From: an uncultured Gammaproteobacteria bacterium
GTDB lineage: Bacteria; Pseudomonadota; Gammaproteobacteria; JACCXJ01
Length of the DNA: 64,000 nt
Reading direction: 5' to 3'
NCBI GenBank assembly: GCA_963764725.1
Contig: CAVXTM010000001.1
Span: forward strand, 384,001-448,000
The notes under the pieces were generated by a model. It saw nothing but the letters and a program-made list of their open reading frames with translations, was not told the origin of the DNA and did no database searches. Shown one piece after another: positions 16,223-62,323 of this stretch. Each line of letters starts with the position of its first letter. Positions within the stretch are counted from its first letter, which is position 1. Both the position numbers and the translations under genes were made by a program.

Positions 16223-16227
16223 CTATC

Positions 16228-19837: not shown

Positions 19838-22273
<2,436 letters not shown>

Positions 22274-22298
22274 GCGCGAGATAGCAAGAACACCGGTG

Positions 22299-22979: not shown

Positions 22980-23051
22980 GGGCTATCCGTTAATCGGCAA
23001 GGGCGCGCGTACCGGTTTAATAACGTGGCTAATGAAGACACACTTAACACC

Positions 23052-24047: not shown

Positions 24048-24175
24048 ACTCTTCGGTCTTATACGTACGAAATGTTGGTCGTAACAATGTTTGGCTTCGG
24101 TCCTCTTGCAGCCGGTTCCGGATAAAGCAAGGATATCGAGGGCGAAGAAAGTAAGCATGAAGAAGAAATGCAAGG

Positions 24176-25375
24176 ATGGCAGCACTGAATAGCGATGCTA
24201 ACGCGCCAGCGTTCGACACAGTCCTGCTTGCTGGACTGCAACACCTCAAAGAGCACTATCAATATCGCACACGCTGGGTTAAAGAAGCCGCAGAAGGTCC
24301 GGAGATCGAAGTCGAAGGTCGTCGCTATGTCGATTTCTCCAGCAACGATTATCTCGGTTTAAGCGGCGACCCGCGCGTTGTTACCGCGTTTCGGCGTGGT
24401 TTGGGGCGCTATGGCGCCGGGGCCGGGGCGTCGCATCTGGTCTCGGGTCATTGTCAGCCTCATCACGCGCTGGAAGTGGAATTGGCAGCGTTTACCGGCC
24501 GGCCCAGGGCGCTGCTATTCTCGACAGGCTATCTGGCGAACCTCGGGATCGCCAGCGCGTTGTTTCGGCGAAACGATACCGTGATCCAGGATCGGGCCAA
24601 CCATGCCTCGCTGGTCGATGCGGCGATCCTCGCGCACGCACGCCTGGTGCGTTATCCCCATCGCGATATCGGGGCGCTTGAACGCCTGCTTTCAAAGGGC
24701 CGGGGCGGGAGCACCTATGTCGTGACCGATGCTGTTTTTAGCATGGACGGGGGCCTCGCACCTTTGGTCGAAATCGCCGCCTTGTGCGCGCGGCACGAAG
24801 CGGTGTTGGTGGTTGATGATGCGCATGGGTTCGGCGTGTTGGGAGCGGATGGGGCGGGCGCCTTGAATCAGCTCGGGCTTGGGCTTCAGGAGGCGCCGAT
24901 CCTCATGGCCACCTGCGGTAAGGCATTGGGCGTATTCGGGGCGTTTGTGGCGGGTTCGGAGCCCCTCATCGAAACACTCATTCAGCGTGCCCGGAGTTAT
25001 ATTTACACCACGGCGATGCCGCCAGCGATGGCCGAAGCAGTGCGCGAAAGCCTCGCGTTGCTGCGTCTCGAGGGGTGGCGTAGGACGCATTTGCAGACGC
25101 TCATCGAACACTTCAGGGCTGGGGCGCGACGCCTTGGGGTAAAGCTTGGCGACTCCCGTACACCGATCCAGCCGGTCATTATAGGTCACAGCCGCACGAC
25201 CTTGGAGGTGGCGGCATTTCTGCGGCGCAACGGATACTACGTCGTCGCTTTCCGGCCACCAACGGTGCCGAAGGGTACGGCCCGATTGCGGATCACCCTC
25301 ACGGCAAATCACACGCCAGCGCATGTCAATGGGTTACTGGCGACGCTCACCGAGATCCCATGCGCTGTTTCATAG
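24176..25375 (+). CDS. bioF: 8-amino-7-oxononanoate synthase
   Basis: FSSNDYLG, NHAS, FSMDG, DDAHG, TCGKA, RPPTVP. Confidence 0.95.
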   Translation: MAALNSDANAPAFDTVLLAGLQHLKEHYQYRTRWVKEAAEGPEIEVEGRRYVDFSSNDYLGLSGDPRVVTAFRRGLGRYGAGAGASHLVSGHCQPHHALEVELAAFTGRPRALLFSTGYLANLGIASALFRRNDTVIQDRANHASLVDAAILAHARLVRYPHRDIGALERLLSKGRGGSTYVVTDAVFSMDGGLAPLVEIAALCARHEAVLVVDDAHGFGVLGADGAGALNQLGLGLQEAPILMATCGKALGVFGAFVAGSEPLIETLIQRARSYIYTTAMPPAMAEAVRESLALLRLEGWRRTHLQTLIEHFRAGARRLGVKLGDSRTPIQPVIIGHSRTTLEVAAFLRRNGYYVVAFRPPTVPKGTARLRITLTANHTPAHVNGLLATLTEIPCAVS

Positions 25376-25658
25376 AACGGCGAGGGCAGGGTATCCCGCT
25401 GCTCTTCATTCACGGGCGGGGATTCACCGGCTCGATCTGGGACGAATTCATCGGGGGCTAACACAGGCTCTGAGCAGGATGGAGACCACCGCGTCAGCTA
25501 TACTACGAGACCGCGATCCCTTAACTCCGGTTCGTGTTGCCGATCCTCTGATGCGCTTGTCTCCGCGTTTATGCACCTACGTCATCGCTGGCGCGGGGCA
25601 TGTGCCTTTTGTCTCGCATCAATACGAGACCCGGCGGGTGTTGCGAGAGTTGTTTTGA
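25360..25658 (+). pseudogene. bioH: Pimeloyl-ACP methyl ester esterase, internally deleted
   Basis: N-terminus MRCFIERRGQGIPLLFIHGRG..W then stop; C-terminus AGHVPFVSH in another frame; GxSxG region absent; sits between bioF and bioC. Confidence 0.8.
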
Positions 25659-26563
25659 TGCCAACAACCTTTCCGGACGCCTATCGGCTTGATAAAAAGC
25701 GCTTGGCGGCCGCGTTTAATCGCGCGGCGCCGAGCTATGACCGGCACGCCGTGTTACAGCAAACCGTGGCCATGCGCATGCTGGAGCGTCTAGCGCTAGT
25801 AAAGATTACTCCCAGGAGGGTGCTGGATGCGGGCGCTGGCACGGGTTACGCCGCGGGCTTTTTGCGCCGCACCTATCGGCCCGAGGCGCTTGTGGCCTTC
25901 GATATTGCCCACGGAATGCTGCGGCAGGCACGGAGGCATGCACCGAGTTTCTTATCGCGCCAGGTTTATCTTTGCGGCGATGTGGAACGCCTGCCCTTAG
26001 CCGCGGAAAGTATCGACCTCGCGTTCTCCAATCTCTCGCTGCAATGGTGCAACGATCTCGACCGGGTGCTCGAAGAATTCCGCCGGGTTCTGACTACCCA
26101 AGGGCTCTTGATGTTTTCGACCTTCGGGCCGGATACGCTCGGCGAGCTACGGGCAAGTTGGGCGAAGGTGGATAAGCGAATTCACGTTCATGGATTCGCC
26201 GATATGCACGACATCGGTGATGCGCTCATTCGCGCCGGCTTCAGTGGCCCGGTGCTGGACGTCGAGCGTTTCACGATGACCTACCCTGATGCCTATGCGC
26301 TGATGCGGGATCTGAAAACGATCGGGGCGGTTAACGCGGCGCAAGGCCGCCATCGCGGTCTCACCGGCAAAGGTCAATTGACAGCGCTTGTGAACGAATA
26401 CGAACGCTTTCGCTGTCACGGCTTGCTACCGGCGACCTTCGAAGTCGTTTATGGGCATGCGTGGGTACCGGAAGCCGGGGTGCGGGCGCAGGACGGAAGC
26501 ACGGTCGCGGCGTTTCCCATCGAACAGCTTAGAAGCGCTATCAAGGTGCGCTTACCGCACTGA
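25658..26563 (+). CDS. bioC: Malonyl-ACP O-methyltransferase
   Basis: FNRAAPSYD, VLDAGAGTG, SNLSLQW, FSTFGPDTL, DMHDIGD. Confidence 0.95.
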   Translation: MPTTFPDAYRLDKKRLAAAFNRAAPSYDRHAVLQQTVAMRMLERLALVKITPRRVLDAGAGTGYAAGFLRRTYRPEALVAFDIAHGMLRQARRHAPSFLSRQVYLCGDVERLPLAAESIDLAFSNLSLQWCNDLDRVLEEFRRVLTTQGLLMFSTFGPDTLGELRASWAKVDKRIHVHGFADMHDIGDALIRAGFSGPVLDVERFTMTYPDAYALMRDLKTIGAVNAAQGRHRGLTGKGQLTALVNEYERFRCHGLLPATFEVVYGHAWVPEAGVRAQDGSTVAAFPIEQLRSAIKVRLPH

Positions 26564-27301
<738 letters not shown>

Positions 27302-30619: not shown

Positions 30620-30872
30620 TCAGCAGAGCGAGGTATGGGATATGAACGAGGCAATGCGCGCTGGGATGCTAAAGGCCACCCGCCTGATCCGCGCACGCGG
30701 GCTCCTCGAGGCCACCGTCACGATTCAACGCACGCTGCGGAGCATCGTCGCGCCGCACGCTGCGGCCGATTCCCCCGGTCCGACCACGGATGGGTCAATC
30801 GAGGGCACCTTTCGTGTCATTGATGCCGACTCCGTCGCTTCGCCTGGTAGTGCCGATGTACGCCAAAGACCT

Positions 30873-30977
30873 GTTCACGGGCCGTCCACACGCTTCCGCG
30901 CGCCGCGGCGTCCCCATTTCTGGGGTTCACGGGCCGTCCACACGGTTCCGCGCGCCGCGGCGTCCGCATTGCTGGGG
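30873..30977 (+). repeat. Near-perfect tandem duplication, 52-bp period
   Basis: GTTCACGGGCCGTCCACACG.TTCCGCGCGCCGCGGCGTCC.CATT.. occurs twice. Confidence 0.9.
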
Positions 30978-31500
30978 AAACTACGAGCCGGCATCCCAGC
31001 CCGCCCCCGCTCCAGACCGAGCATGCGACGTGGTGCCCGGGGGGCGGTTCCTCACCGGGTCCTACACCAATCAGGCGGGAACTCGCGCCTACAAGCTGTA
31101 CATTCCCAGTGGCTACCATGGGCAGACGCTGCCCTTAGTCGTTATGCTCCATGGCTGTACGCAGACCCCCGACGATTTCGCCGCCGGCACCGGCATGAAT
31201 GTGCTCGCCGAAGAACACCAGTGCTTCGTGGTGTATCCTGCCCAGGCGCCTGCCGCCAATGGGTCGAAATGTTGGAATTGGTTCAATGCGGCTGACCAGC
31301 ACCGCGACCAGGGAGAGCCATCCATCATTGCCGGTATCACCCGTCGAATCGTCGGCACCTACCCCGTCGACGCGCGGCGGGTCTACGTGGCTGGACTATC
31401 AGCCGGCGGGGCGATGGCCGCGATCATGGGGATGACCTACACCGATCTTTATGCGGCCGTCGGCATCCATTCCGGGCTTCCCTACGCTGTCGCCCACGAT

Positions 31501-31568
31501 CTTCCTTCCGCCTAACCGCGATGAAGCAGGGCGCCTTCCTTCCGCCCTAACCGCGATGAAGCAGGGCG
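31501..31568 (+). repeat. Tandem duplication, 34-bp period
   Basis: CTTCCTTCCGCC(C)TAACCGCGATGAAGCAGGGCG occurs twice. Confidence 0.9.
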
Positions 31569-42816: not shown

Positions 42817-44572
42817 ATGGCTACAATAGCAGAACCGGGGACGGCGGACGGACGCGTGAAGCTGGGTCTCGCGCTCTCGGGGGGCGGTTTTCGCGCCTCG
42901 TTTTTTCACCTGGGCGTCCTGGCCCAGATGGCGATGCAGGGCTTGCTGCGGCGGGTGGAGGTGATCTCAACGGTCTCGGGCGGCTCGATCATCGGGGCGC
43001 TTTACTACCTGCACCTGAAGCGGCTGTTGGAATCGGAGGCGGACTCCGACCTGACCGATGGCCACTATCAGCGCTTGGTCGAGGACATCGAGCGCGATTT
43101 CTTCGCGGCCGTTCAGACCAATCTTCGCATGAGTACCTTCACCGATCCGGCCGCGAACTTCAAGATCAGACGGCCGGACTATTCGCGCAGCGACCGCATT
43201 GCGGAGCTGTACAACGATCGCCTTTACCAAGGTGTCCTGCCCGGCCTAGAACCCCCTATCAAGATACGCGAGGTCAAGATCCAGCCTAAAGGGAGCCAAT
43301 GCGGGGTTTCACCCCGAGCGCGACAACCACGGCAGAGGCGCTAAGGTCCCTATTCTCCTTGTCAATGCGACTACGCTCAACTCCGGCCGTAACTGGCGCT
43401 TTACCGCATCGCGCATGGGAGAACCGCCGCGCGACAACGCCCTAGCAAGAGAAATAGACAAGAAGGCGATCCGCTTGCGCCGGCCGCCGTCCTACACCGA
43501 CATCCCGCCCTACCAACAAGACTTTACCCTAGGCCACGCCGTAGCCGCGTCCGCGTGTGTGCCGGGGATCTTTCACCCGCTCGCGATCAGTGGCCTGTAC
43601 CGTGATCCCGAGATGGGAGACGAGATCCGCGTGCAGTTGGTCGACGGCGGTGTCCACGACAACCAGGGGATCCAGGGTCTCCTGGACGAAGCCTGTACCC
43701 ACTTCATCGTGAGCGATGCCTCGGCCCAAATGGAAGAGATAGATGAGCCCGCTACCTACTTCGATGCGGTCTTGGGCCGCGCGGCCTCGATCTCCCAGGA
43801 CCGCGTGCGCGAAGAACAGCTTTTCCGTCTGTGGGGCCCCACCGACCGATCGCGCATCGCCTTCATGCATCTCCGGGCGGGACTGGCCACTCGTGCCATC
43901 GCCTGGCTGGGACCCGACGGGCAGCCCGGGACTCCCTCGGAGGAAGTCCTGCGACCTGCGATCTCGACCGCCGATTTTCATGTCGATGACCGGGTCCAGG
44001 ATCTCGTTTCGGGGATCCGAACCGATCTCGACTCCTTCACCGAGGTCGAGGCCTGCACGCTCATGGCGGACGGGTATCTGATGAGCGACTCCGAACTCCA
44101 CAGCTTGGCTGCGGCGGTGGCCGGCCGGCCGGGTGGGACCCCAAGGCCCGCGGATCTGGCGCCACCTGCGTGGGGTTTCCTCAAAATTAAGCCCTGGATG
44201 GAACGGCCCAACGAGGCCTATCTCAAGCAACTCAAAGTGGCGTCCTATCAATTTCTCAAGCTATTCCACTTGGTCCTGCCCGGCTGGGCAAAGGAGGCGT
44301 TAGCGGTGCTCGCCCTCCTAACGCTTCTCGCGCTCGTCTGGATCCTGATCGATGTGAGGTTCTCCCTGGGCCTTATACTGCTGATGGTGATAATGTGGGG
44401 GCTGAATCGCTACAGCCGAAAGCTCGGCCGCGGCGTGTGGGTATTCCGCGTGCTGCGCGCGCCCGTGGAGGCCATCGTGCGCTTGATCACGAGAGCACTC
44501 ATCCCGATGCTCGGGTCCTGGGCCATAAACTTACACTACATCAAGCGCCAGGCGAGCATGGTGCTCGCATAG
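42817..44572 (+). pseudogene. Patatin-like phospholipase with C-terminal TM helices, frameshifted near 43300
   Basis: LSGGGFRA, TVSGGS, NATTLNSG, AASACVP, DGGVHDNQG. Confidence 0.85.
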
Positions 44573-47269: not shown

Positions 47270-50200
47270 ATGCGCAATACTTACCACGTATTTTTAGCAG
47301 TCGTCCTCTCGTTTAGCTCGTATGCCGCAGCGTACGGAGAGGAGATCCGCGATTACTACGCCGAACCGGGTCTCAATCCCTTCAAGGAGACCCTCAATCA
47401 AGATCTCAACGAACACATTGATCCCTTCTCGGGCACCTTGCAGCACAAATACGTCGATATATACATCCCCGGCAACGGCGGTCTGGATCTCAAGGTGAGC
47501 CGCGTGTATACGAGCCCGCAAGAAGCTCTCGGGGTGCGCACCGTCACCGGCGCAGGGTGGACCATGCATTTCGGCCGCGTCGTGATTCCTACGGACTACA
47601 CGGACACGCTCTGCCTGCAAGACCTCTATGCGGTCAGCACCCGCGATAACCCATCGATCGAATTCCCCGACGGCGGCCGCGAGCTCTTGGTCCTCGATGC
47701 AGTGCACGGCACCTATCTCCTCACTAAGGGCGGCTGGCGGGCCATGTGTAACGGCAGCGGTCAGGGGCTCATCGTGACCTCCCCCACGGGCACGGTGTAC
47801 ACCATGGACGCGCTCAACACCCTGAACAACCATTGGAGCTGGTACACGACCAATATTCGTGATCGGCATGGCAACACCATCGACGTCACCTACAAGACCA
47901 ACTCGTCGAACTTTATTTACATCGACACGGTGACTGCAAGTGACGGCCGTCAGGTCAAATTCGAGTACCTCAATGAGGAAAGCGCGACTATCCGGCTCGA
48001 TAAGATTACTGCCAATGAGCAAACGTGGATTTACCGTTACGAACGGATCGAGGCGATCGGTCCCGGGTACGGCAACAATTACCATAACCTCATCGAGGTG
48101 ATCCGTCCCGATGGTTTGCGGTGGCGATATAGTTACTATCCTTATACCTCCCTTGAGACGGCCGGCAACTACGCTCTCAAAACCGTCACCTATCCGTACG
48201 GGGCCAATATTACCTACACGTATCAGCATATCGATTTTACCCCCACCGATCTGTCGATCGATAGGACCACCGCTATCGCCACCAAGGAAGTTTCCAGTAA
48301 TCCACCCGGGATCTCGATGGGCCCCGGCTCGTCCTTACCCAGTGGCACCTGGAGATTCGAGTTCGCGCCCCATTCACCGGAGTTATTCTTTACCGACAAT
48401 GGCACGTGGACTTCCGGACTCGACAAGACCACCGTGAGAATGCCGGGCGGCAAGCAGGTTTACTACCACTATGGGTACTCCTATACCGGGGGGCTGTCGA
48501 GCGGCATCCTGTGGGCGACCGGTCTCCTCTACAAGCAAGAAAGCTGGGACGGCTGCTCGGCCGACAGTTGCGTGGGCGTGGCATCGACATTAGTGGATGA
48601 AGTTACCAACGGCTGGGAACCGCGATTGATCTCCCGCGAGAACTTTTGGCATGGCCGTGAGGGGGTCGAAGAGGACACCTACGCCCCCCAGCTCGCGAGG
48701 AAGGTTCATAGCCGCGATGATTCCGGAAATGAGATCCGCTATGAGCAATACGATGCCTTCGGTAATGCAGGGAGAATCATTGAGAGCTCCAACCTCACTG
48801 GGGATCCCGACAAGGTGACCGAGCTCGGCTACTACATCGATCGCGAGAAATGGATCCTCCATCAAGTCGACGACGAGACCATCCTCGGGGTGAATGGCGA
48901 GGTCGTGAGCCATACCGATCGTAGCTTCAACGAGGACGGCGATCTCATCGCCGCGGATCAGAACGGCGTCCTGACGAGCTATACCTACACTGCCGAGGGG
49001 GATCTCGCCACCGCAACCGACGCGCGCGGGAGTACTACGCGCTATGCGCGCTACCGCCGCGGCAGCGCGCAGATCGAAGAGCATCCCGAGTCAGTCACGC
49101 TTTCGCGCGTCGTCAACGACACCGGCACCGTCGCTTCAGCGATCAACGGCCGGGGATTTACCCGCCACTTCACCTATGACGGCACGAACAGGCTGACTGG
49201 AATCACCTATCCGAACCATGCCCCGGTCAGCATCGTCTGGGACGCGAGCGGCAAGACTCTCACCCGCGGGAGCTACGAGGAGCGCATCGCATTCGATGGC
49301 TTCGGACGGGTGGTCAGCACCACGCGCGCCGACATGGCGCGCGATATTAGCATCACACAAACGATGAAGTACGACGTCCACGGCAACAAGATCTTCGAGT
49401 CCTATCCAAACTCCGAAGCCGGGGTGAGTTATGCCTATGACCTTCTCAAGCGCCTCACCACCCTGCGGCACCCCGACGGAGCCCTACGGAGCTACGTCTA
49501 CGGGGGCGGTGAGGTAGCGGAAACCGACGAGCGGGGCAATACGACGAATTACCTCTACCGCAGCTTTGGCGATCCGGACAAGGACAAAGTCCTTGTCATG
49601 ATTACCGAGCCGAATGGGATCTACACGATCCTCGACTTCAACCTACTCAACCTCCTGACGAGCGTGTTCCAGGGCGACCTTACCCCCACGGGATCGCTCT
49701 CCGGCTTTACGCGTCGGCTGAGCTATGACAGCCGCTATTTCCTCACCTCGGTCTCAGATCCCGAGACCGGAGTGACGAGTTACGGACGCGACGAGGTGGG
49801 CAACATGATCGCGCGGCAGGTGGGAAGCTCGGGGGTGACGGCCTACACTTACGATGCTCTCAACCGCCAGGTGTTCAGCGACTATCCGGGCACCACCCCC
49901 GATGTGACCAAGAGCTACGATGCCGATGGACATCTCACCAAGCTCACCAACAGCCAAGCCGTGATTGACCACCGTTATGACGAAAACGACAACCTCATCG
50001 AAAAGGTACTGACGCTCGACGGCGTCCCCTATGCGCTCAACTTCACCTATAACGCGCTCGACGGTCTCGCAACGCTTACCTACCCCTCGGGGCGGGTGGT
50101 CAACTACCTCCCGGATGCCTTCGGTCGGCCGACTCAGGCCGCGCCTTACGTGAGCGGGGTGAGTTATCATCCTTCCGGCCAACTCGCCCGGATTAACCAC

Positions 50201-52310
50201 GCCAACGGCGAGCGCACTGAGATCACGCTCAACGAGCGGCAGTGGATTTCCGAGTTTCTGCACCACGGACTTGCGGAGCTCCATTATGGTTACGATGCGC
50301 TCGGCAACGTGCTCGGCCTGACCGATCCCTTGAACCCCGCCGAAGACCGCGCCTTCGGTTACGATGCGCTCAATCGGCTGACGAGCGCCCAGGGCCGGTG
50401 GGGTCAAGGAACCTTGAGCTATGACGCCTTGGGCAATCTGCGCTCGCTGAACCTGGGTGCGAACACCGAGCGCTACGACTACAACGGCCTGCGGCTCAGG
50501 ACGCGCATCCATAACGAGACCACTAGCTCCTGGTACACCCATGATGTCTATGGCAACGTCCGGCTGGACGTGGATGTGCTCGGTTTAAGCTCAAATGCTC
50601 CGCAGTACCGAGGGCGGCAGTATACCTACGATGATGCGGGAAACTTGCGCAATGTGCTCCGAACGGAGAACATCGGGAGCAATCCGGTGTCCTCGCAGTA
50701 CTACTTCGACTACGATGCTTTGGGGCAGCAGATCCGGCGCACCGCTCCCAACGGGGAGATCATCCACTTCGTCTATGGGCGCACCGGGCAGTTGCTCGGT
50801 GAGTACAGCGGCTCGCTCGGTTACGGCAAAGAATATGTCTACCTCGGCAGCCAGTTGGTCGGGAGCGCCCAAACCAACCAACCTCCCGAGGCCCAGGCCG
50901 GAGCGGACCGGAGCGTCAACGGCGGGGCGTCCGTGCAACTCGATGGCCGGGGCTCGACGGATCCCGATGGCGCCATCGCGCGTTACGCCTGGGTGCAGAC
51001 CGAGGGCAGTCCCGTTACCTTGAGCGGGGCAGCTGCAACGGTGAGCTTCAGCGCCCCGGTGCTGGAGAACACCTCGGTGCTCGGCTTCACCCTCACCGTC
51101 ACCGATGACAGCGGCGAGGAGGCACAGGACAGCGTGCGGATCACCGTGCTCGGGAACCCTGCACCCACCGCTGATGCAGGCCCCGATCAGAGCGTGCGGG
51201 GTGCTGCCATTGTCGCTCTCGACGGGACGGCCTCGAACGACGCCGACGGCCACATCGCCCGCTACGCCTGGCGGCAGATCGGCGGCATGCCTGTGACCCT
51301 GAGTGGGGCCGACACCGCGATCCCGAGCTTCACCGCACCGACGCTAGCCGAGGCCCAGGTGCTGAGCTTCGAGTTGACCGTAAGCGACAATCTCGGCGCG
51401 CAGGCCACCGCCGCGGTGCACATCACCGTCCTCGGCAACGAACCCCCGAGCGCCCATGCGGGTGCCGATCAAACGGTGCCGGGTGGCAGTCCGGTAGGGC
51501 TCGATGCCACGGGCTCGACGGATCCCGAGGGGAGCATCATCGCTTACACTTGGTCGCAGACGGGCGGTCCGGCCGTGAGCCTGATTGGCGCAGATACCTC
51601 GACCCCGACCTTTATGGCCCCCCTCTCTGGCAACGACGAGGTGCTCAGCTTCACCCTCACGGTGAGCGACGACATCGGTGCGAGTGGAAGCGATTCGGTG
51701 ACCATCACCGTGCAACGCGTAGCGCTCGGCAATCAACCCCCGAGCGCCGAGGCGGGAGTCGATCAAGAGCTACGCGCCGGGGGTGTTGTAGAGTTGAATG
51801 GCGGGGCCTCCACCGATCCCGAGGGCCAGCCCCTTCGCTATCAGTGGGCCCAACTCGAAGGCCCGCGCGTCCAGCTCGCGGGCGCGAGCACCTCCCGGGC
51901 GCGCTTCACCGCCCCTTATGTCGCGATCGACACGCTCCTCCGCTTTGAGCTGACGGTGACCGACAGCGCAGGGCTCTCGGCCGAGGACACGGTGGACATC
52001 GTGGTGCAACCGAATGTACAGGGCACAGACACGCAAGCACCCATCACCCGGCTCTTCACCACCCCCCTGCGCTTCGGAGGCAGGGTATACTACCCCGTGG
52101 CTTCTCAGCGCCAACGAGCCTGCCACCACCTACCTGCGGGTGAGCGATCCCAACGCGCTCAGCCTGGGGGCGCTCAAGACCACCGAGTGGCAGGTGTATC
52201 GAGGACCCTTCCTCGTCACGCTCACCGCCGCTCGGACCCTTACCGTGGAGTACTACTCCATCGACAGCGCCGGGAATCAGGAATCCATCAAAACAAGGGT
52301 ATTGCAGTGA
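47270..52310 (+). CDS. Secreted Rhs/YD-repeat shell protein with four PKD/Ig repeats and a C-terminal beta-sandwich (frameshift near 52100)
   Basis: Signal peptide; IDPFSG..IPGNGGLDL..GW Rhs N-terminus; many YD repeats to EYVYLGSQLVG; natural C-terminus (TVEYYSIDSAGNQE) lies in ORF 52014-52310. Confidence 0.85.
50876..52015 (+). repeat. Four PKD/K319L-like Ig domain repeats of about 95 aa
   Basis: NxPPxAxAGxDQ...LD..S.DP.G..Y.W.Q..G starting at 50876, 51155, 51437 and 51731. Confidence 0.9.
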
Positions 52311-53259
52311 TGACAACCAAAGGACGGTGTATGCGTTTCCTTATTGCGTGTCTCCTCACACTCCTCGCCCTGCCGGCAGGAGCGATCGAGCGGGTCATCC
52401 ACTACCACAACGACGCCTTGGGCTCCCCCATCGCCGCGACCGATCAAGATGGCCGCGTGGTGTGGCGCAAGTCGTATGGGCCCTATGGCCAGCCTATCGG
52501 CCCGGGGGCCCCGAACGAGCCCGGTTACACCGGCAAGTTCGACGTGCCCGGCCTCGGCATCCAAAACTTCGGGGCCCGCTGGTACGACCCGCGGATCGGC
52601 CGCTTCCTCGCCATCGATCCCGCGGCTTCGATCCCTAGAACCCCCAGAGCTTCAACCGGTACGCGTATGCCAATAACAACCCGTATCGCTTTGTAGACCC
52701 CGACGGCAATAGTCCCCTCGATGTAGGCTTCTTCATCGCCGACACCGTCAGCTTCGGGCTCGCGGTGGCCTCGGGAAACCCGGCCGCCATCCAGTCTGCG
52801 GCCTTCGACTTCGCTGCTAGCGCCGTGGGCCTTGCGAGCCCGATACCGGGAACCGGGCTCGCTATCAAGGCGGCACGGGCGGGGGATAAGATCAGCGACG
52901 CGGCGAAGATAACTAAGGGTGCAGCGAACCCAGTTCCAGAAACGCTTGCTCGTGTTATTCCGGGTCGAGGGCCGTTTCCGACACTTGGCTCGCCAGGGAA
53001 AAGCGATGTGTTCGTTACGGCTGCCGACGATATTGCGGGCTTGAACGCTAAACAAATCGCCGATCGACTGACTATCGCTCCAGCTGACTCCTTCACTGTC
53101 ATCAAGTTTCCAACTCCAGAGAGTGGGTTAGCCAGCCCGGTCAACCGGGTTGGTCCCGGCTTCGTTGGCGGAGGGCGAACAGCTGGCGGCGCTCGCGAGT
53201 TCGTCGTCCCCAACGGACCGATTCCGTCGGGCGCAAGCACTGAGATTATCGGCCCATGA
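52310..53259 (+). pseudogene. Signal-peptide Rhs-core protein with C-terminal toxin (Ntox10-like); frameshift and TAG near 52620-52638
   Basis: MRFLIACLLTLLALPAGA; YHNDALGSP, GYTGK, GARWYDPRIGRF, NRYAYANNNP..DPDG; tip ASPVNR..GFVGGGRTAGGAREF. Confidence 0.8.
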
Positions 53260-53540
53260 AGCTGCAGCCGCAAGAAACCGATCTTGTAGGGACATGGATT
53301 AGCAGCGGACGTGCGGTGCGCGCAGACGAAACTTGTAGGCGTATCGAATGGCTTGTCAAGGAAGTCTTGGAAGAAGTGGCCGTGAGTCCTCAATGGGGCG
53401 CATGGGAGACGCTATTCCGCGATCTCGAAGATGGTCGCTTTTGGGAGCGTACTTACCCTGAAGGGCATATGCACGGCGGTGGCCCCCCGCGACTGACATG
53501 CATCTCGCCGGAAGAGGCTAGAACCAAGTATGCGATATAG
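53256..53540 (+). CDS. Imm27-like immunity protein
   Basis: ATGA overlap with the toxin stop; RIEWL, WETLFRD..DGRFWE, HGGGPPRL. Confidence 0.8.
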   Translation: MKLQPQETDLVGTWISSGRAVRADETCRRIEWLVKEVLEEVAVSPQWGAWETLFRDLEDGRFWERTYPEGHMHGGGPPRLTCISPEEARTKYAI

Positions 53541-53969: not shown

Positions 53970-54097
53970 AGCTGCCAAACGCTTCCTTTGTAAGCTAGCC
54001 TGCGAGGCACGCGAGAACAAATAGGCGTTCAGCGTATGTAGATGTAGGCTTTCTCAGGCACGATACTGAAGGGGTAAGTCAGCCCTCGCCAGCACCG

Positions 54098-54631
54098 GTG
54101 AAACGACAAGAAGAGGAGCGGCCGCGCTTCCCTTCCGCTTATTTCTGGGCGATGGCACGGATTTATGAAGTCTTCCCGCTGCTCTGTCCGCGTTGCGCCG
54201 AAGACGATCATCGCCTTCGTCACCGAGGCGGGCTCGATCAAGCGTATTCTCGAATACCTCGGGCAGCCGACAACTCCGCCCCCCCATTACCCCCGCTCGC
54301 GGCCCGCCGCACTGGGGTCGATGACATCGATCAAACGCCGAAGTACGACGCGGCGCTCGCTCAGCGAGCGCCGGACTATGAGTTTGATCAGACCATCAGC
54401 TCATTTCGTCTCCCGGTCGAGATCCTCGGCCGGCAGAGCTGCCCTCGCCCTAATACACCCGTTTCCGGTCCCTGAGTCACCCCGACGCACCAGGCAATGT
54501 CCTTTCCTGCCGCTAGACGGCCCACACATGGCCTCAATCGCCAGGGTGCGACCTGTCGCGCGACAGTATGTCGCCTTCCCATCCCCATGGGCGTAAGCTA
54601 GAATCTGGGTATGTGGTTGGATTTCCTATCC
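54098..54631 (+). mobile_element. IS91/ISCR-family remnant: transposase C-terminus plus oriIS-like end
   Basis: WA..ARIYEVFPLLCPRC / IIAFVTE..IKRILEYLG..PP..ARGPP across frames; GGTTGGATTTCCTATCC at 54615-54631. Confidence 0.75.
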
Positions 54632-54739: not shown

Positions 54740-56790
54740 ATGAGAACTGCGGCCACCGAAGCTCTCTACGTCCGAAATACCCCGGAGGCCCGCGACCACG
54801 TGCAACGCTGGATGCCGATGGAGGTTGACCAGCTCAAGTCCGAGCCACTGCGGCGCGTCGCCCCGTTTGAGGCGACGCTTCTCGAACGCGGCTTCCCGTT
54901 CCACGAACTTTCGCTGGTCATCAGTGCCGACCGGCGAGCACACGACCCGGTCTACGGCGCCCACCGGTGGTGGGCGCGGCGCCCGCCAGCGCTCCTCAGG
55001 TCCATTTTGCTCACTGCGGCGCTGCCGGCTGACGTGTCGTCCAATGAATTCTGGGCGCTGTATGGGTCGAACGGGGCGCTTGCTCGATGGATGGCGTGTC
55101 CATGATCCCTTCGTCGGGGGTGGCTCGACACTTGTCGAGGCAGCTCGTCTGGGAAGCAGGATATCGGGCGGCGACATCGATCCGTTGGCGGTCGAACATC
55201 GTGCGGTATGAGCTGAACCCTGCGTCGGCAGAACAAATCCGTGCCGCAGGGGAGCAGCTGCTGACCTACGTTCGCTTGCAATGTGGGCACCTCTATCCGT
55301 CATCGGCACGCAGGCAGCCGCTCCATTACTTCTGGCTCCACGAAGTCACTTGCCCCTCCTGTGGCGGGATCGGCCTGTTGTATCGCGATCTCCTGCTCAC
55401 ACGAGATCGGCAGAAGCCAGGCGCCGTGGTTCGCGATCACCCTCTCACCGTCTTCTGCCCGAGTGACCTAAGCATCCATCATCTCAACAGCCCGGATCGT
55501 CGGGAGCTTCGACATCGCGGTCGTCGATGGCCGATTGCCCGCGGCACGTTCAGCCGCAACAGATACACCTGCCCTCACTGCGGCAAAACTTCGACTCACA
55601 AGGAACTACTCACGGGTAGCGCACCACGCCGCTTGATTGCTGTGGAGGACACTGCACCAGGGCAACGCCGAACCCTGCGCAAGCCATCACGCGAGGACAT
55701 AGCGGCGATGGCCCGCGCAGCCGTGTGGCTGAGCGAACACCGCAACACATTGGCGCTCCCGACCGCAGTACTGTCGAAGGAGCGTCACGACGAGCGGCCT
55801 CGGAGCTTCGGGATGCTCCACTCGACGGACCTGTTCACCGACCGGCAGCTGACGGTCTTTGGCTCTGCGTTTCGATGGCTTGGTACGGCAGACCTTGAAC
55901 CGAACGTGCGGGATGGTCTCCGTCTCGCCGTCTCGAACGCGCTCGCGACGAATAACAAGCTATGCAGCTATGCCTACGATTATGGTCGGCTGTCGGCGCT
56001 CTTCAGCGTGCGCGGCTATTCGCTGCCTGCGCTACCGGTCGAACTGAACCCTCTCCATCCAGACAGCGGTCGTGGCACGCTCCACCACTGCATAGAACGC
56101 GTCGCGCGAAGTGGTCGTGAGAAGGTTCGCCGTCACGTCTGGTCACCGGCCCGTGACTGTGTCTATGCTCGAACCCTTGATTTGCCTACCGGTGTTGCCA
56201 CCGACGATGTCCGCTGTACCTCGGCAACCTCCCCGCCGGCGGCTGGTGCGCCGAGCGCAGACCTTTGCGTCTTCGACCCGCCGTACTTCGACTACATCGC
56301 ATACGAAGAACTATCGGAGTTCTTCCGGGCATGGCTCGAGCCGAAGGCAGTGTCGGGAACGCCTCTCCTGCCCGTCGGGCGCGACCCCGGCGAGTCATTC
56401 GGCCTCGAGCTCGGCGTAGCGCTGCGCGCAGCATTAGCACGCCTCGCACTAGGCCGCCCCCTCGCCTTCACGTATCACTCGACCAACCCCAAGGCCTGGC
56501 GAGCCGTGGGCATCGCAATAGACGAAGCAAAGCTTCGGGTTATGGGCCTGTGGCCCGTGTACAGCGACGGCCACATGGGTCACCACAGCCACCCCGGAAA
56601 CTGCGAGTGGGATTTAGTGGTCGTGTGCCGTCGCGTCAGTGAGACGGTACCAGCAACCGCCACATTCGATACCGACGTCTGGGCCCGGACAGCACAACCG
56701 CTCGCTATCGGTGATGCCGATCGCACCAGCATGAAACTTGCGATTTCCATCGTCAGCTCCCGTTTCGGGACCGCGGCCAAGGAGTTATGA
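54740..56790 (+). CDS. DUF1156/COG1743-type adenine DNA methyltransferase with Zn ribbons (frameshifts near 55085 and 55195; start uncertain)
   Basis: HRWWARRP, motif I DPFVGGGST..GDIDP, CxxC pairs, LFTDRQL, motif IV DPPYFD, FTYH. Confidence 0.85.
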
Positions 56791-56791
56791 C

Positions 56792-58125
56792 TTGAACGCC
56801 GACGAGCGCAGTCAGCTCATCCGGGCTCGCCAGCAGCCAGCTACACGCCCGCCTGAACGACTTTGGGTGCGGGACCAGTGGCAGGAGTTCCCGGTAGTAC
56901 AGGTCCCGGTGGAAGCGCTCGCGCTCAACGTCGACAACCGACGATTTGCGGCTGAGCGCACATGGGCGGAAGAGAAGCTCGGGCGAGCACTCGATCCCGA
57001 GAACCGGCCCGAAGACGAGCGCGTCGTCGAACAGATTTTGCTCGACACCGCGCTCGACTTCGATGGTGATCGTCTCGTGGGTAAGCCGAGTAAGGATTAC
57101 GACGCCCTGAAGAAGGACTGGCAGCGACGGCATCAAGAATCGCCCCTGTGGATCCGCCCAGACGGAACTGTCCGGAACGGAAACCGACGGCTCGCGATGC
57201 TGAAGCGGCTGCAGCGCGAAGAAGGTATAGAGGGCTTCGAGTACGTGGACGTCGTGATTCTAAAGCCCGATGACATCGATGAGGTCGCGCTGTTCGACAT
57301 GGAGCAGCGCGAGCAGCTGACCGAGAACCTCAAGGTCCGATACACCGACATAAATCTGCTTCTTGCCATACGAGCGGCTGCAGAGTCACGGGGCATCGAC
57401 TGGTTCAACCCGGACGACATCGACCGCGTCGCGGGCGAACTCCAGCATGTCGTCGGGAACAACAAGGCCTACGCCGCTATCCAGCTCAGCGCCATCCGTT
57501 ACATGGATGCGTACCTGGATAGCTCCGATCAGGCTGGCCAATACCACAAACTCATCGGTCAGATTGAGCGCTTCCGTGACGTCGGTAAAGCAATGACCAA
57601 GCTTGAGGTCGACTACGAAGATGATGTCCCAGCCATGCTGCGAGTTCTGTTCGCGGCCATCCGTGCGGGTGCCCCGCACGGCGACATTCGCGTTCTGAAG
57701 AACTTATTCCTCCACGACCGCGCGAGATATAAACAGCTGCTCGCGCAAGTGGACGGAATCGAGGCGAGCTGGGAGCAGGCCGCCGGGCCGGACAGCCTCG
57801 CGGAGCCTGAAGTGGTCGACATCGCCCCTGCTGCAGACGAAGAAGAGGACGAAGACGAGCTAGCCGAGCCGCCGGGTCCGAACGTGCCCAACTACCCGCG
57901 TGACGATATCCGGGACGCCATCGACAACACGATCGATGGCTTCCAAGCGTCCATGACCGATGACGTCGCCAAGACGCTCCGCCAGATCCTCAACCGGTTA
58001 GAGGCCTCAGCGATGACGGCGGTAAGCTCGATCAAGCTCTCGGGGGTGAGCACGCTGTACGGGTCCGGGACGCTCTCGCTGCGATCGTCGCCTGGGCGGA
58101 TCGTCATCGCGACCTGCTCGGTTAG
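56792..58125 (+). CDS. ParB/Srx-like N-terminal domain protein (frameshift near 58005)
   Basis: LNVDNRRF, QESPLWIRPDGTVRNGNRRLAML ParB-fold motif; helical acidic C-terminus; RBS AAGGAG. Confidence 0.75.
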
Positions 58126-58127
58126 CG

Positions 58128-60095
58128 ATGGCCGGCGAACCTGCCGACGCGACTATCCGCATTAACGGCGAGTCGGTCCTAGTAACCGGTTCCGAGGCTC
58201 TACAGAGTCGCAACGCGCGTCTCTTCTTCCGCTCCGTTCTCGGCGCGGATGGCGAGGCCGGCGGCTGGCGTTGTCCGCGTCGCAACCGCTCCCTCGCTGC
58301 GCTGGTCGTTCGGGTCAACAATTTCCTGGAGAACCAAGGGTGGCGAGTCGAACGAGAAGGACTAGCCGACCGGGAAGTTGAGCGAGAGCTCGAACGTCGC
58401 CGCAGCTTCGAACGGACCCGCCGAACTGCCTCCGAGTGGAAAGAGGGAAGCCCGGTCATCGACCGCGAGGCGGTTCTCGCCGGGATCAATGATCTTGGGT
58501 GGTCACAATCGCGAACTCTGCGGCCACACCAGGTAGATGGCCTCTTGCACGCCCTCGTCGCGGGAAACGCAGCAAACTTTTCAGTACCGGGCTCGGGCAA
58601 GACCGCTACGGCACTCGCCGTCGCGGCCGCGCATCTAGTGGCCGGCACGATCGACACAGTTGTAGTCGTGGGACCCTTGGCCTGCTTCAGGCCGTGGGAA
58701 GACGAAGTGGCAGCGACGCTCGGTAGCGTGCTCCATACGAGGCGCATCCGTGGTCCGGCTCGCACGAGACGCCTGCAGTACGACTCAACTCAGCCTCGCG
58801 ATCTGCTACTCCTCAGCTACGCGACTGCAGCCGCAGACCTACTTGTACTAGTCGAACTCTGCAGGGGCCGCGATGTGATGCTCGTCGTCGACGAGTCGCA
58901 CCGCATCAAGAGATTCCGTGGTGGCCTGTGGGCACCAGCACTCATGCAGATCGCAGAACACGCACGGGTCCGGCTACTTCTTTCCGGAACACCGATGCCC
59001 CAGAGCGGCCGTGATCTGTATAGCCAGCTCAACGTCATCTGGCCCAACCGGCAGCTCACCGGTCCACCGGACACATTCGCCTCGCGGGTCGATTCTCAAT
59101 TCGAAGGCGTGCTGTGCGACATCCATCCGTTCGTTGTGCGGACGCCGAAAGAGAGCCTCGGACTACCGCCGTATGAGATCCATCGGCACGACATCGCCAT
59201 GAACGCGACACAGGCCGAGATCTACGAACTGATCGTCAACCACTTCCGACGCAGGCTTGAAGACGCCGACGCATGGGTCGACAAGTTGGACGCCCTGCGC
59301 CGTGCGCGGCCGATTCGGCTCCTGCAGGCTGCCACTAATCCGAACCTGTTCAACCGGTCCGACAGCTACTACCGCGTCCCCCGCATCGACCGCGCGAATC
59401 CGACCCTCATGGATCGGCTCGCCACGTACATGGAGCACGAAGTCCCGGCCAAGCATGAACTAGCTCTGGTGCTCGTCGCCGAAGCAACGGGGCGCGGCGA
59501 AAAGGTTGTCTGTTGGAGCAACTTCCTCATCAACCTCGATCAATTCGGCGATCTCGTCCGGAGACGCCTCGACATCCCGTGCCATCAGGTCGACGGGCGC
59601 GTGCCGACGGACGACGAGCCCGTTGATGACCAACCAGCCGCGTCGCGCAAGAACTCGGAGGAGATTGATACGCGCGAGAGAATCATTGCTCGCTTCCTCC
59701 GAACGCCCGGCCCAGGGGTGCTAATCGCCAATCCCGCATCGTGCTCGGAATCCATCTCGCTTCATACCACCTGTCATAACGCGGTTTACCTTGACCGAAC
59801 TTACGACTGCGCCCAGTTCCTGCAGTCGATCGACCGGATTCACCGCCTCGGCTTGCCAGCTGATGTCACTGTCCAGGTCCATATTCTCCGCGCCAGTCTC
59901 AATGGCGAGCCCGCAGTCGACCACCTCGTCGACGCCTCACTCCTGGCGAAGGAGGCGGTGATGCTTGAACTACTCGAGGGTGCCGTCCTGCAGCCCATTA
60001 GGCAGAGCGACGACCCTGTCGACGATGCTGAGGGCAATCGGCAGGATCTCGAAGCGCTGCTCCGGTATCTCCTCGGAGAGGAGGTGGGCAGCTGA
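58128..60095 (+). CDS. SNF2-family SF2 helicase/ATPase
   Basis: LRPHQ, NFSVPGSGKT, VVDESHRIK, SGTPMP, SESISLH, QSIDRIHRLG. Confidence 0.92.
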   Translation: MAGEPADATIRINGESVLVTGSEALQSRNARLFFRSVLGADGEAGGWRCPRRNRSLAALVVRVNNFLENQGWRVEREGLADREVERELERRRSFERTRRTASEWKEGSPVIDREAVLAGINDLGWSQSRTLRPHQVDGLLHALVAGNAANFSVPGSGKTATALAVAAAHLVAGTIDTVVVVGPLACFRPWEDEVAATLGSVLHTRRIRGPARTRRLQYDSTQPRDLLLLSYATAAADLLVLVELCRGRDVMLVVDESHRIKRFRGGLWAPALMQIAEHARVRLLLSGTPMPQSGRDLYSQLNVIWPNRQLTGPPDTFASRVDSQFEGVLCDIHPFVVRTPKESLGLPPYEIHRHDIAMNATQAEIYELIVNHFRRRLEDADAWVDKLDALRRARPIRLLQAATNPNLFNRSDSYYRVPRIDRANPTLMDRLATYMEHEVPAKHELALVLVAEATGRGEKVVCWSNFLINLDQFGDLVRRRLDIPCHQVDGRVPTDDEPVDDQPAASRKNSEEIDTRERIIARFLRTPGPGVLIANPASCSESISLHTTCHNAVYLDRTYDCAQFLQSIDRIHRLGLPADVTVQVHILRASLNGEPAVDHLVDASLLAKEAVMLELLEGAVLQPIRQSDDPVDDAEGNRQDLEALLRYLLGEEVGS

Positions 60096-60096
60096 C

Positions 60097-61066
60097 GTGC
60101 CTGTGCTCTCTTCCTGGTTCACGGCACCTCGAGTGCGTCGTCTGCACGAGGTGCTCGCGGCGATACCGGAACGGTCGCTAGCGCTCGCCGAGGGCGATGC
60201 GAAGCTGTGTATCTGGCGGCGTTGTGGTGGGCCGATCGATGAAGTCGGCGTGTTGGTCGAGGTTCTCGTCCATGCCGAACTTGTGCGCCGCGAGAAGGCA
60301 TCACTCCGGTTGACTGCCGCTGGGCGCCGGACACTCACGCGTAACCGCGTCGAGCAGAATCGGCCGCTCGCGCTCGCCCTCGTCCGAGCGGGACTGCTCC
60401 ATGACCAAGCGCGAGCATTGCTCGACTCCTTCCCTGTCGACCCTGACGGCAGCTTGACTTGTCGAACCAACGATGCGCGTCGTGTTGCTCCCCAGCTCGT
60501 TGGGCTTGTTCAGCTCTGGACCGAGGTCCGCACTGGCTCCACGTTGACCATCCCGCGTCCACTCGTTGACGAGCTCGCCGCCGTGTGGGCGCTCATTGCA
60601 CCGCCGTCAGAGGCACGGGCAGAGCAAGAGAAAAGACGCAAGTCGATCGGGAACCGCGCAGAGGCCTACAGCTACCAACTGGAGCGGCTCACAGCGGCAG
60701 CCGCGTCCGGGATCGTCTGGGTCGCGCAGGACGACGACACGCTTGGCTATGACCTGGAGGATCGCAGTACGTTGCCCCGTAGACGGATCGAAGTGAAGGG
60801 AAGTGGAGGAGAAGCTAGAGGCTCAGTTCTTCATGTCGGACAACGAATGGCGAAAGGCCCACGAGAACCCCGGAAGCTACGAGATCCACTTCTGGGGCGG
60901 GATAGACCTCAATCGACCCACCGCCGACGAATACTCCGTGCTGCGGTCGATGGGATATCCGATTGTGCTGCGAGACGTGCCAGCGCTCCTCGCCGCGGGA
61001 GAGCTCTTGGCGAAGCCAGATCGATGGCGCGTCGCGGCGGCTCGCAGCGCGGAGACGCCGCTATAG
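60097..61066 (+). CDS. DUF3883 (NOV-C)-like PD-(D/E)xK nuclease domain protein (frameshift near 60815)
   Basis: IGNRAE...WV..DDTLGYDL...IEVKGS then FFMSDNEW..A..Y.IHF. Confidence 0.8.
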
Positions 61067-61164: not shown

Positions 61165-61266
61165 GGCGCGACTCCTGTGCGCCGGGACTTGAATATGCCT
61201 GGAGGTGGTCAGGAAGTCACCTTCGATACCTTAATCCCGCCGGAAGCAATCAGGAGGGTCAGATGA
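61165..61266 (+). pseudogene. Possible orphan toxin C-terminal tip
   Basis: TPVRRDLNMPGGGQEVTFDTLIPPEAIRRVR*, coupled by ATGA to a small downstream ORF. Confidence 0.4.
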
Positions 61267-61589
61267 TGATGAACGACCTCCTCCAACTCCTTAATGGTGA
61301 AGTGGCTGAGTTCCCGAGTCGGGCTTCAGGCGAAGAGGGTTACGAATACATCAACAAAATTGCGGGACGTTATGTCACCTCGGAACGGCAGAAATTGGTT
61401 GCTGCACTCACGAGTTGGCTTCAACTGAGGTCGGAGCCCAAAACAATGATTGCGGTTGATGTCGCGAGTAAACTGCATTTGAACGAGTTACGTCCAGAGA
61501 TCGAGAAGCTTTTGGTCGATGTCGAGCAGGGAAAAGCATTCTTGCCGTTTTATGCTCGACCAATAAAAGCTGCGCTCGCGATGATTTAA
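61263..61589 (+). CDS. Small helical hypothetical protein, possible immunity protein
   Basis: RBS AGGAGGG, ATG overlapping the upstream stop, lower GC. Confidence 0.6.
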   Translation: MMMNDLLQLLNGEVAEFPSRASGEEGYEYINKIAGRYVTSERQKLVAALTSWLQLRSEPKTMIAVDVASKLHLNELRPEIEKLLVDVEQGKAFLPFYARPIKAALAMI

Positions 61590-61737
61590 TGTTGCAAGGG
61601 CTTAGAGACCGAAGGCAAAACGGTTCTCGGTCATTACCCTGAGCGAGCAACAAAGGGTCAAGGCTCGACATATAAACTGATATTCGTCTTGACCCGGTTC
61701 TGTGGACACTTCATGTTTACGGGGCGAGGTGTTCGCT

Positions 61738-61950
61738 ATGGCAAAGATGCAACCGAAGTACACGCTGGAGTTTCGGCGTCAGATGGTGGAATTGGTTCGT
61801 GTCGGTCGTAAATCAGCGAGCTGTCACAAGAGTTCGGCTGCTCGTCGTGGGCTATCCGGTACTGGGTCAAACAGGCCGATCGAGATGCGGGTGGGCAATG
61901 GCGATTTGACAACGGCGGAGCGCCAGGAGCTGACGCGTCGTCGAGAGCCG
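61738..61950 (+). mobile_element. IS3-family orfA remnant
   Basis: KYTLEFRRQMVELVR / ELSQEFG..AIRYWVKQAD / LTTAERQELTR across frameshifts. Confidence 0.8.
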
Positions 61951-62323
61951 GCCGCTTCAAATCGAACGGGGGAGGTTCACGTTAAAAAGCCCCTCGATTC
62001 GGTTTTGGACCCCGAGGCGCGGTTGAGCTGCAAAAGGCGCGGTAAAGACCAACGCGAGGATTAAGGCTCCAAAAAAATATTTTACACGATTGCGCATTAT
62101 TCCCTATCTTTGCGGTCTAACCCGATCGATACTTTATACAGTTGAGTATCACCGTATCGAGTAGCGAGCCCACAGCCCAACCCCATCGCGTAGCCCAGGC
62201 ATGTCCCGGAAAACGTAAAGCCCATTAGACCGGCGGTCGAGTCCCTTCCTTCCAACACCCGAGATCAAAGCCAACGCCAATGCTGTCGATAATGGGCAGC
62301 GCAACCATTTAAGTGGATCAAAC

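Follow-up and report, generated by a model that had tools for sequence, protein, structure and literature searches.

Hma systems have three components: HmaA, in which an SNF2 protein is fused to NOV_C and which on its own protects against T4, the DUF1156 protein HmaB, and the DUF499 ATPase HmaC (PMC11232893). A 2026 analysis renamed Hma as DUF499-centred BREX-related (BR) systems of types 1-3, all of which are built on the DUF499 ATPase (PMC12839542). Here, we analysed a stretch of 64,000 nucleotides (referred to as the window) from an uncultured Gammaproteobacteria bacterium (contig CAVXTM010000001.1), in which four co-oriented genes on the + strand at window positions 54740-61066 encode, in this order, a methylase, a ParB-like protein, an SNF2 protein and a nuclease. 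Hma, or the type-1 BR system, is the closest named system to this cassette. Both have an N6 methylase of DUF1156 type, distantly related in the cassette, whose insert between motifs I and IV contains zinc-ribbon cysteines. They also share an SNF2 ATPase, a NOV_C (DUF3883) nuclease of the PD-(D/E)XK type, a presumed restriction-modification-like logic and a frequent location in islands with integrases (PMC11232893; PMC12839542). As judged from sequence comparison, the cassette is probably a restriction-modification-like immune system that is horizontally mobile and that survives in the window as a decayed copy.

The four genes are very tightly packed. Reading directly from the DNA, the methylase gene stops at TGA 56788-56790 and is followed after 1 nucleotide by the TTG start of the ParB-like gene at 56792; the latter stops at TAG 58123-58125, 2 nucleotides before the ATG start of the SNF2 gene at 58128, whose stop TGA 60093-60095 lies 1 nucleotide before the GTG start of the nuclease gene at 60097. 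The co-oriented run with gaps of 1-2 nucleotides, which had been noted in a first-pass annotation of this DNA, is therefore real. To survey this arrangement in other genomes, the ParB-like protein was used as query in a genome scan, which gave 45 loci. The methylase, ParB-like and SNF2 genes were present in the same order and on the same strand in all 45, and the nuclease gene followed the SNF2 gene in 40 (39 loci plus L011, where the contig ends inside the gene). No gene was split in 41 of the 45 loci, and the cassette genes abut or overlap. The loci belong to six phyla: Actinomycetota (21), Chloroflexota (11), Acidobacteriota (6), Myxococcota (3), Pseudomonadota (2) and Gemmatimonadota (2), and intact cassettes are present in culturable Streptomyces, among them S. 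prunicolor NBRC 13075 (L024) and S. gamaensis (L022), and in Paraliomyxa miuraensis (L016). The four-gene combination described in the first-pass annotation is thus conserved, and the combination is not due to chance.

Pairwise identities of the four proteins co-vary across 33 loci (Spearman 0.54-0.83). The SNF2 tree (FastTree) mixes phyla, for example with a Gammaproteobacterium and a Thermoanaerobaculia bin as sisters (branch lengths 0.09 and 0.075), which fits horizontal spread of the cassette. The nearest relative of the window copy is locus L001, with 69% identity of the SNF2 protein. No clear hypervariable specificity segment was seen in 20-residue conservation profiles of the four proteins. 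There was also no conserved fifth gene, as no flanking family was common to more than 10 of the 45 loci and the positions of such families vary. It had been suspected that a gene was lost at the upstream end of the cassette, next to an IS91 remnant; because no fifth gene is conserved across loci, and no DUF499 match was found in any of the flanks scanned, nothing appears to be missing there.

The first gene (54740..56790, +) encodes a DUF1156-like N6-adenine DNA methyltransferase, as indicated by Pfam, PADLOC, motifs and tblastn, and is a pseudogene spread over three frames; its start may be at 54812 or 54818 instead of 54740. Pfam DUF1156 scores were 22.8 bits for the window methylase and 23.4 bits in a second scan, both just below the cutoff of 24. 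The window methylase had partial PADLOC matches to MTase_II, HmaB and DUF1156_MTase, and the best PADLOC model for the intact methylase of locus L038 was HmaB (E 1.6e-19, in three partial stretches). The sequence contains the DUF1156 signature RWWARRPP, DPFVGGGS, DPPY and two CxxC pairs, all of which are conserved among 42 homologues; DPPY, D.F.GGG and RWWARRP are invariant or nearly so across the family. Motif I is followed by an insert of approximately 380 residues that contains the two CxxC pairs, and then by DPPY. On the other hand, the intact protein has only ~660 amino acids, compared with ~950-970 for the HmaB-type profile, and it reaches 62 bits against a cutoff of 1000 for NCBIfam NF042963 ('DUF1156_antiphage'). 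The earlier label of DUF1156 methylase therefore needs qualification: by sequence, this is a short and distant relative of the Hma/BR methylases.

The second gene (56792..58125, +) is a pseudogene with one frameshift, and its product, when intact, has ~443 amino acids. Alignment of homologues, an AlphaFold model (pLDDT 79) and Foldseek indicate a ParB/Srx-like protein, with an N-terminal ParB-N-like domain carrying RNGNRRL, a helical body, an acidic linker, the motif PGPxVPNYP and a C-terminal helical domain. The top 10 Foldseek matches in PDB were all ParB, Noc, KorB or the N-terminal part of pNOB8 ParB, including ParB bound to a CTP analogue; the best match had E 0.019, probability 1.00 and a TM-score of 0.52 normalised by the target. 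The nearest Atlas (language-model) cluster carries the name 'ParB/Sulfiredoxin domain-containing protein' (score 0.98). For the N-terminal part, ParB_N is the first family with a name (score 0.86), which we take as a lead only. Judging from the predicted structure, it is quite likely that this protein has a ParB/Srx fold. RNGNRRL is invariant in the family, and we read it, without structural superposition, as the counterpart of ParB Box II (GxRR).

The ParB-like proteins form a compact family. Among 8000 candidates examined, 666 proteins were found at E <= 0.001, and the 120 relatives listed have 327-457 residues (mostly 440-450), all named ones being 'hypothetical'. In 1.84 billion proteins, there were 512 representatives (at 50% identity) at E <= 0.001, the longest of which has 510 residues. 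We also observed that the region around residues ~334-368 of the family member P0003 (window ~57790-57900) contains a low-confidence acidic linker, after which come the invariant PGPxVPNYP and a conserved C-terminal helical domain. This region looks like a putative docking motif for a partner protein.

The third gene (58128..60095, +) has an intact frame of 655 codons and encodes an SNF2-family ATPase/translocase, as identified by Pfam, a PDB profile search, motifs and tblastn. Pfam SNF2-rel_dom was detected with 47.5 bits (cutoff 24.9, E 1.7e-12), and the PDB profile search returned 61 sequences at E <= 0.001, with SsoRad54 first (4e-17) and many remodellers among them. The Walker A motif (PGSGKT), DESH and QSIDRIHRLG are conserved among homologues, and PGxGKT, DESH and DRIHRLG are invariant in the family. 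From this sequence evidence the assignment as an SNF2 helicase, already made in the first-pass annotation, is secure.

The fourth gene (60097..61066, +), also a pseudogene, corresponds to a stand-alone nuclease of ~316 amino acids when intact, with winged-helix-like modules and NOV_C, according to Pfam searches of homologues, a structural model and tblastn. NOV_C was not detected by Pfam in the split pieces of the window, but the intact L038 nuclease has NOV_C (DUF3883) at residues 188-261 (41.7 bits against a cutoff of 22.1, E 1.2e-10). Residues D219, E232, V233 and K234 do not vary among 38 sequences. In the model (pLDDT 90.7, pTM 0.82), ~185 N-terminal residues contain two helix-helix-helix-strand-strand modules, and Foldseek gave weak matches of winged-helix type (E >= 0.03); because of this secondary structure and these weak matches, we interpret the N-terminal part as two candidate winged-helix modules. 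The nuclease gave chance-level matches only in the PDB sequence search, and no longer or fused relatives of it were found, which is weak evidence. Thus, a DUF3883 nuclease encoded by a gene of its own, as had been proposed, is supported by L038 and by the separate gene in the 40 loci mentioned above. All motifs that had been pointed out in the window (DPPY, GNRR, DESH and EVK) are present.

The window copy of the cassette is damaged. Using the intact proteins of the two closest loci, L001 and L038, as tblastn queries, we located four small frame changes, at ~55062-55069 and ~55193-55198 in the methylase gene, at ~58003-58006 in the ParB-like gene and at ~60810-60818 in the nuclease gene, the last within the catalytic domain just after EVK. 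Three of the four genes are hence broken, in agreement with what had been seen before, and only the SNF2 gene, covered by a single tblastn segment (58146-60083), is intact. The L001 proteins are covered almost completely by the window copy (methylase, residues 11-652 of 654; ParB-like, 1-444 of 445; SNF2, 3-648 of 651; nuclease, 3-314 of 319). As the rest of the cassette aligns end to end, the damage consists of four small indels without any deletion. No frameshift site sits in a long repeat tract, and therefore there is no sequence sign of phase variation. The window also contains the housekeeping genes dnaA, dnaN, gyrB, yidC and mnmE, none of which is truncated; a general assembly error is therefore unlikely, and all four frameshifts are probably genuine. 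With four frameshifts breaking three genes, the window copy is probably dead.

By analogy with known systems, we infer a defence function and a role for each protein, including contacts between them. The parallel with the Hma/BR domain plan (DUF1156 methylase, SNF2 and NOV_C) is counted here in favour of defence. The DUF1156-type methyltransferase would mark host DNA, with its zinc-ribbon insert recognizing the target sequence, and its product would probably be N6-methyladenine because of the DPPY motif. The ParB-fold protein would act as a nucleotide-gated DNA-binding or clamp subunit, in place of the AAA+ ATPase of the DUF499/BrxC kind in Hma and BREX-related systems. Its dedicated SNF2 partner may translocate on DNA, and the nuclease with its predicted winged-helix modules and PD-(D/E)XK domain would cut unmarked DNA.

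To characterize the genomic context of the cassette, 333 flanking open reading frames (ORFs) of at least 110 amino acids within 5 kb of 43 loci were compared with Pfam. Mobile-element genes (integrase, recombinase, transposase, relaxase, coupling-protein or pSAM2-type RepSA/FtsK genes, the latter of actinomycete integrative and conjugative elements) were found in 21 of the 43 loci, and domains of defence, restriction-modification or toxin type in 12. These include Shedu SduA_C, GmrSD_N with AAA_15/21, a XamI restriction-modification system, a C5 methylase, SIR2_2, CHAT, NACHT, DUF4011 with AAA_11, RES, RAMP, PIN and one true HmaA. Altogether, 27 loci have mobile-element or defence-type neighbours. 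The L038 cassette has a TrwC relaxase on one side and a TraG coupling protein on the other, L002 adjoins ArdC-N, and five Streptomyces loci lie in pSAM2-like elements with RepSA or FtsK_SpoIIIE.

Several side observations were made in these neighbourhoods. In the Pseudomonadota locus L020, a gene for nucleotide modification associated domain 2 (Nmad2; 4400-5068, +) lies immediately upstream of the methylase gene. In L043 (2-7019, -), a bona fide HmaA of 1145 amino acids (1404-4841, -; 1280 bits in PADLOC, where it also served as positive control) was found 3 kb upstream of a nuclease-less cassette, flanked by a 664-residue protein without family and by a methylase-like frame cut by the contig end; thus, an Hma-type system and a cassette of the four-gene family lie side by side. 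In the five nuclease-less loci (L039-L043), two convergent genes directly follow the SNF2 gene (e.g., L039:10343-11970, -), encoding a predicted membrane protein of 186 amino acids and a protein of ~300 amino acids that are 80-96% identical among the five loci. No family was found for them beyond RexA at E 4.6e-4. They may be substitutes for the nuclease or make up a small system of their own.

The mobile context raises the question whether the cassette could be an establishment or counter-restriction module of mobile elements, in which methylase and SNF2, helped by a ParB-like nickase or NTPase, protect incoming DNA. Dyads of adenine methylase and SWI2/SNF2 as well as ParB domains have been described in such elements by Iyer et al. 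2017 (PMC5512222), and the loci within or beside conjugative genes, together with the mobile-element genes in nearly half of the neighbourhoods, would agree with such a role. Moreover, distant ParB-like + SNF2 pairs occur on 69 plasmid records, 62 of which are conjugative or mobilizable. DarB-type methylase-helicase dyads and DdrB-like ParB domains, for which such a protective role has been proposed, likewise bring adenine methylase, SWI2/SNF2 and ParB together in conflict systems of mobile elements; however, their domains are fused in very large injected proteins of phages or conjugative elements without a restriction nuclease (PMC5512222), whereas the cassette has separate genes including one for a nuclease. 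No fused polyvalent form was found, as the ParB-like proteins do not exceed 510 residues and longer nuclease relatives were not seen (the same weak evidence as above). A nuclease that keeps invariant catalytic residues in 40 of 45 loci would be unexpected in a purely protective unit, the methylase is of the DUF1156/HmaB kind, and tblastn searches for the core ParB-like family found nothing among 72,556 plasmids and 50,697 phages. Because defence systems are also common cargo of such elements, the context itself does not discriminate, and on balance we consider a protective module improbable.

The distant pairs deserve attention of their own. Two remote members of the family have plasmid matches, P0189 in 69 records and P0179 in 68, mostly from Enterococcus. 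In E. faecalis pQZ076-2 (L046, 4336-10011), a gene for a ParB-like protein of 405 amino acids overlaps one for an SNF2 protein of 620 amino acids. The latter matches the cassette SNF2 with E 9.3e-39 in hhalign, whereas the true HmaA of L043 aligns with the cassette SNF2 at a generic level only (E 1.2e-10), so that by sequence the plasmid SNF2 is specifically related to that of the cassette. This pair is preceded by a gene for a protein of 864 amino acids with a Sigma70_r4 helix-turn-helix, which was considered as a relative of the methylase and rejected, being unrelated to the cassette methylase. On an Exiguobacterium plasmid (L047, 6920-10691), the ParB-like gene overlaps an SNF2 gene whose product has a PbeA-like PLD N-terminus (E 1.5e-67); genes for ParA and RHH proteins precede the pair. 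The occurrence of such pairs on Bacillota plasmids, from Enterococcus, Lactiplantibacillus and Exiguobacterium, suggests that ParB-like + SNF2 may represent an older two-gene core that predates the four-gene cassette.

A broader, and so far tentative, idea is that an unnamed group of immune systems is built around a ParB-fold NTPase with a dedicated SNF2 translocase, a conserved core that is combined with different nucleases. Such a core would pair with a stand-alone winged-helix + NOV_C nuclease and a DUF1156-type methylase in six phyla, and alternatively, on a Bacillota plasmid, with a PLD domain that is part of the helicase. In that case the ParB-like nucleotide-gated clamp would license motor and nuclease on unmarked DNA. 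If true, this would be the first restriction-like system in which a ParB-type switch is the subunit for sensing or loading, taking the role played elsewhere by AAA+ (BrxC, DUF499) or ABC (PbeC) ATPases.

It is also conceivable that the cassette serves defence but is wired differently, with the ParB-like protein acting as NTPase partner or regulator of the methylase, and with SNF2 and nuclease alone as the restriction effector. The ParB-like gene indeed follows the methylase gene after a 1-nucleotide gap, base insertion is driven by the ParB-like ATPase DpdB, DndB is a regulator belonging to the ParB superfamily (PMC12839542, PMC10853773), and fusions of ParB-fold and methyltransferase domains bind ATP (PMC12704722). 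However, identities of the ParB-like protein track those of SNF2 (0.81) and nuclease (0.77) more closely than those of the methylase (0.54), and on the Bacillota plasmids described above the distant ParB-like gene overlaps an SNF2 gene with no methylase homologue adjoining. Such a wiring therefore seems unlikely to us.

In spite of the shared domains, membership of the cassette in Hma fails when the individual proteins are compared. The DUF499 AAA+ ATPase that defines all three BR types is missing, and the cassette has a ParB-fold protein instead in 45 of 45 loci; no DUF499 match was found by Pfam in the 333 flanking ORFs of the 43 loci or in the ORFs of the window, which agrees with its reported absence from this locus. 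The cassette nuclease, with its predicted winged-helix modules, is encoded by a separate gene of 316 codons, whereas HmaA (type 1) has its nuclease fused C-terminally. The cassette SNF2 does not belong to the HmaA family, as neither the window nor the L038 protein had a PADLOC HmaA match at E <= 0.01, and the methylase is much shorter than the Hma profile and scores far under the NCBIfam cutoff. The idea that this is an ordinary Hma or type-1 BR system that lost its DUF499 gene at the IS91 end draws on the overlapping domains and on the HmaB match of the L038 methylase, and these differences make it very improbable. A housekeeping or maintenance role outside conflict, such as partition or DNA repair, could be proposed from the classical activity of ParB-fold proteins in partition and from the ParA-family genes beside the Exiguobacterium pair, but it is hardly credible given that no ParA gene is conserved beside the cassette, that the distribution is patchy and mixes phyla, that pseudogene decay is seen in the window and in up to 4 of the 45 loci, and that pairing of methylase and nuclease is typical of restriction-modification logic.

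Other multi-gene systems resemble the cassette in plan more than in parts. PbeABCD, which is centred on a CxC ABC ATPase, also has four genes, with an SF2 helicase and nuclease, a DNA-scanning NTPase and a modification partner; however, its scanning NTPase is the CxC ABC ATPase with a DndE-like partner, its modification is often phosphorothioation and its HKD nuclease is fused to the helicase (PMC6459918, PMC10853773). None of the PbeABCD-specific parts is present in the cassette. DISARM and BREX are likewise multi-gene defences with a methylase and an SNF2 or SF2 helicase. The SNF2 protein had weak partial PADLOC matches to DrmA/DrmD (E 1e-4 to 8e-3), but PADLOC and Pfam revealed no DrmB/DUF1998, no DrmC/PLD gene and no convincing DrmA. 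For BREX, there were weak partial PADLOC matches to PglX (~1e-5) and BrxH (~1e-3), and no PADLOC or Pfam match to PglZ, BrxA, BrxB, BrxC or BrxL.

ParB-fold proteins are known in several defence systems, such as the DUF262 domains of GmrSD and SspE, DndB and DpdB (PMC5512222, PMC12839542, PMC10853773), and proteins of this fold bind CTP, ATP or GTP (PMC12704722). As in the cassette, a ParB-fold NTPase domain works there with a nuclease or a DNA-modifying enzyme. These proteins differ in having DUF262 or DGQHR-type domains, usually fused to HNH or paired with Dnd/Dpd, whereas the cassette protein represents a distinct family of 443 amino acids that is always paired with its own SNF2 gene. PADLOC-DB 2023 contains no system that matches the four-gene cassette. 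No description of the cassette, and no ParB-like protein paired with an SNF2 gene in an operon of methylase and nuclease, was found in the accessible portions of the literature; the supplementary neighbourhood tables of PMC12839542 might list variants. Together with the missing BREX, DISARM and Hma parts, these results are in line with the first-pass annotation, in which the combination was not recognised as BREX, DISARM or a standard restriction-modification type.

Several points weigh against a ParB-gated restriction-modification-like system and should be considered. With respect to the second gene, the Foldseek E-values are weak (0.02-0.1), Pfam gave neither ParB_N nor any other match, nor was there a match in PADLOC or NCBIfam, the PDB profile search returned 0 matches at E <= 1, and hhalign against one canonical ParB (from L002) gave a probability of 0.1% and nothing in the N-domain; the name ParB-like thus holds by predicted fold but not by sequence profile. 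The nuclease is absent in 5 of the 45 loci, all from one Solirubrobacteraceae lineage. Sixteen of the 43 loci have metabolic or unknown neighbours only, the sorting of neighbours as defence-type was our own judgement, and the neighbourhood figures are plain counts. Because the distant Bacillota plasmid pairs have no methylase homologue beside them, the core ParB-like + SNF2 pair may have a role that does not need self-marking. Finally, the frameshifts of the window copy could be assembly errors.

If the cassette is a working immune system, the ParB/Srx fold would be a fourth kind of scanning NTPase in multi-gene defences of methylase, helicase and nuclease. With four proteins of ~660, 443, 655 and 316 amino acids, it also offers a compact system for studying how a ParB-type switch and a translocase can be coupled. 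Members of the family are widespread in phyla with thin coverage in defence screens, namely Actinomycetota, Chloroflexota, Acidobacteriota, Myxococcota and Gemmatimonadota.

In the window, the cassette is bounded by remnants of insertion sequences (IS). At the upstream edge lies a C-terminal fragment of an IS91-family transposase (54002..54472, +), identified by tblastn against plasmids: it matched 29 plasmid records, the best under annotated 'IS91 family transposase' genes (35-38% identity over residues 24-133, E 4e-5), and had no Pfam match. The downstream edge is formed by an OrfA-like remnant of an IS3-family transposase (61693..62061, +), for which tblastn against plasmids gave 5 records; the best of these (45% identity, E 4e-7, residues 1-84) coincides with a gene annotated as 'IS3 family transposase'. 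Mobile-element remnants therefore flank the cassette on both sides, as had been described. Because the copy is a pseudogene cluster in an island bounded by IS remnants, its practical meaning for the source genome is small. A frame of ~108 codons (61263-61589, +) directly 3' of the nuclease gene had no family match and is not conserved beside the cassette in other loci. One promoter-like site was found, at 54576-54604, against 1.1 expected, and no + strand terminators were found within the cassette; both results are uninformative.

Further features of the window lie upstream. A polymorphic toxin locus of the Rhs/YD-repeat type (47270-53540), which the cassette adjoins, contains a frame of 1808 codons with RHS repeats, PKD domains and an RHS core, followed by an Ntox10 toxin domain in a separate frame (52765-53259) and an Imm27 immunity gene (53256-53540); the toxin tip thus does not seem to share the reading frame of the Rhs body. 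The L016 cassette is likewise adjoined by an RHS/SpvB gene. The region 13109-27301 is the neighbourhood of a chromosomal replication origin with mnmE, yidC, dnaA, dnaN and gyrB, all full length, and therefore the window is chromosomal; dnaA lies ~32 kb from the cassette. A biotin cluster (BATS/radical SAM, aminotransferase, methyltransferase and AAA_26, all full length) comes after the origin genes. Short frames at 12797-13036, 30790-31515 and 42817-43344 match only parts of serpin, PHB-depolymerase esterase and patatin profiles and may be further gene fragments.

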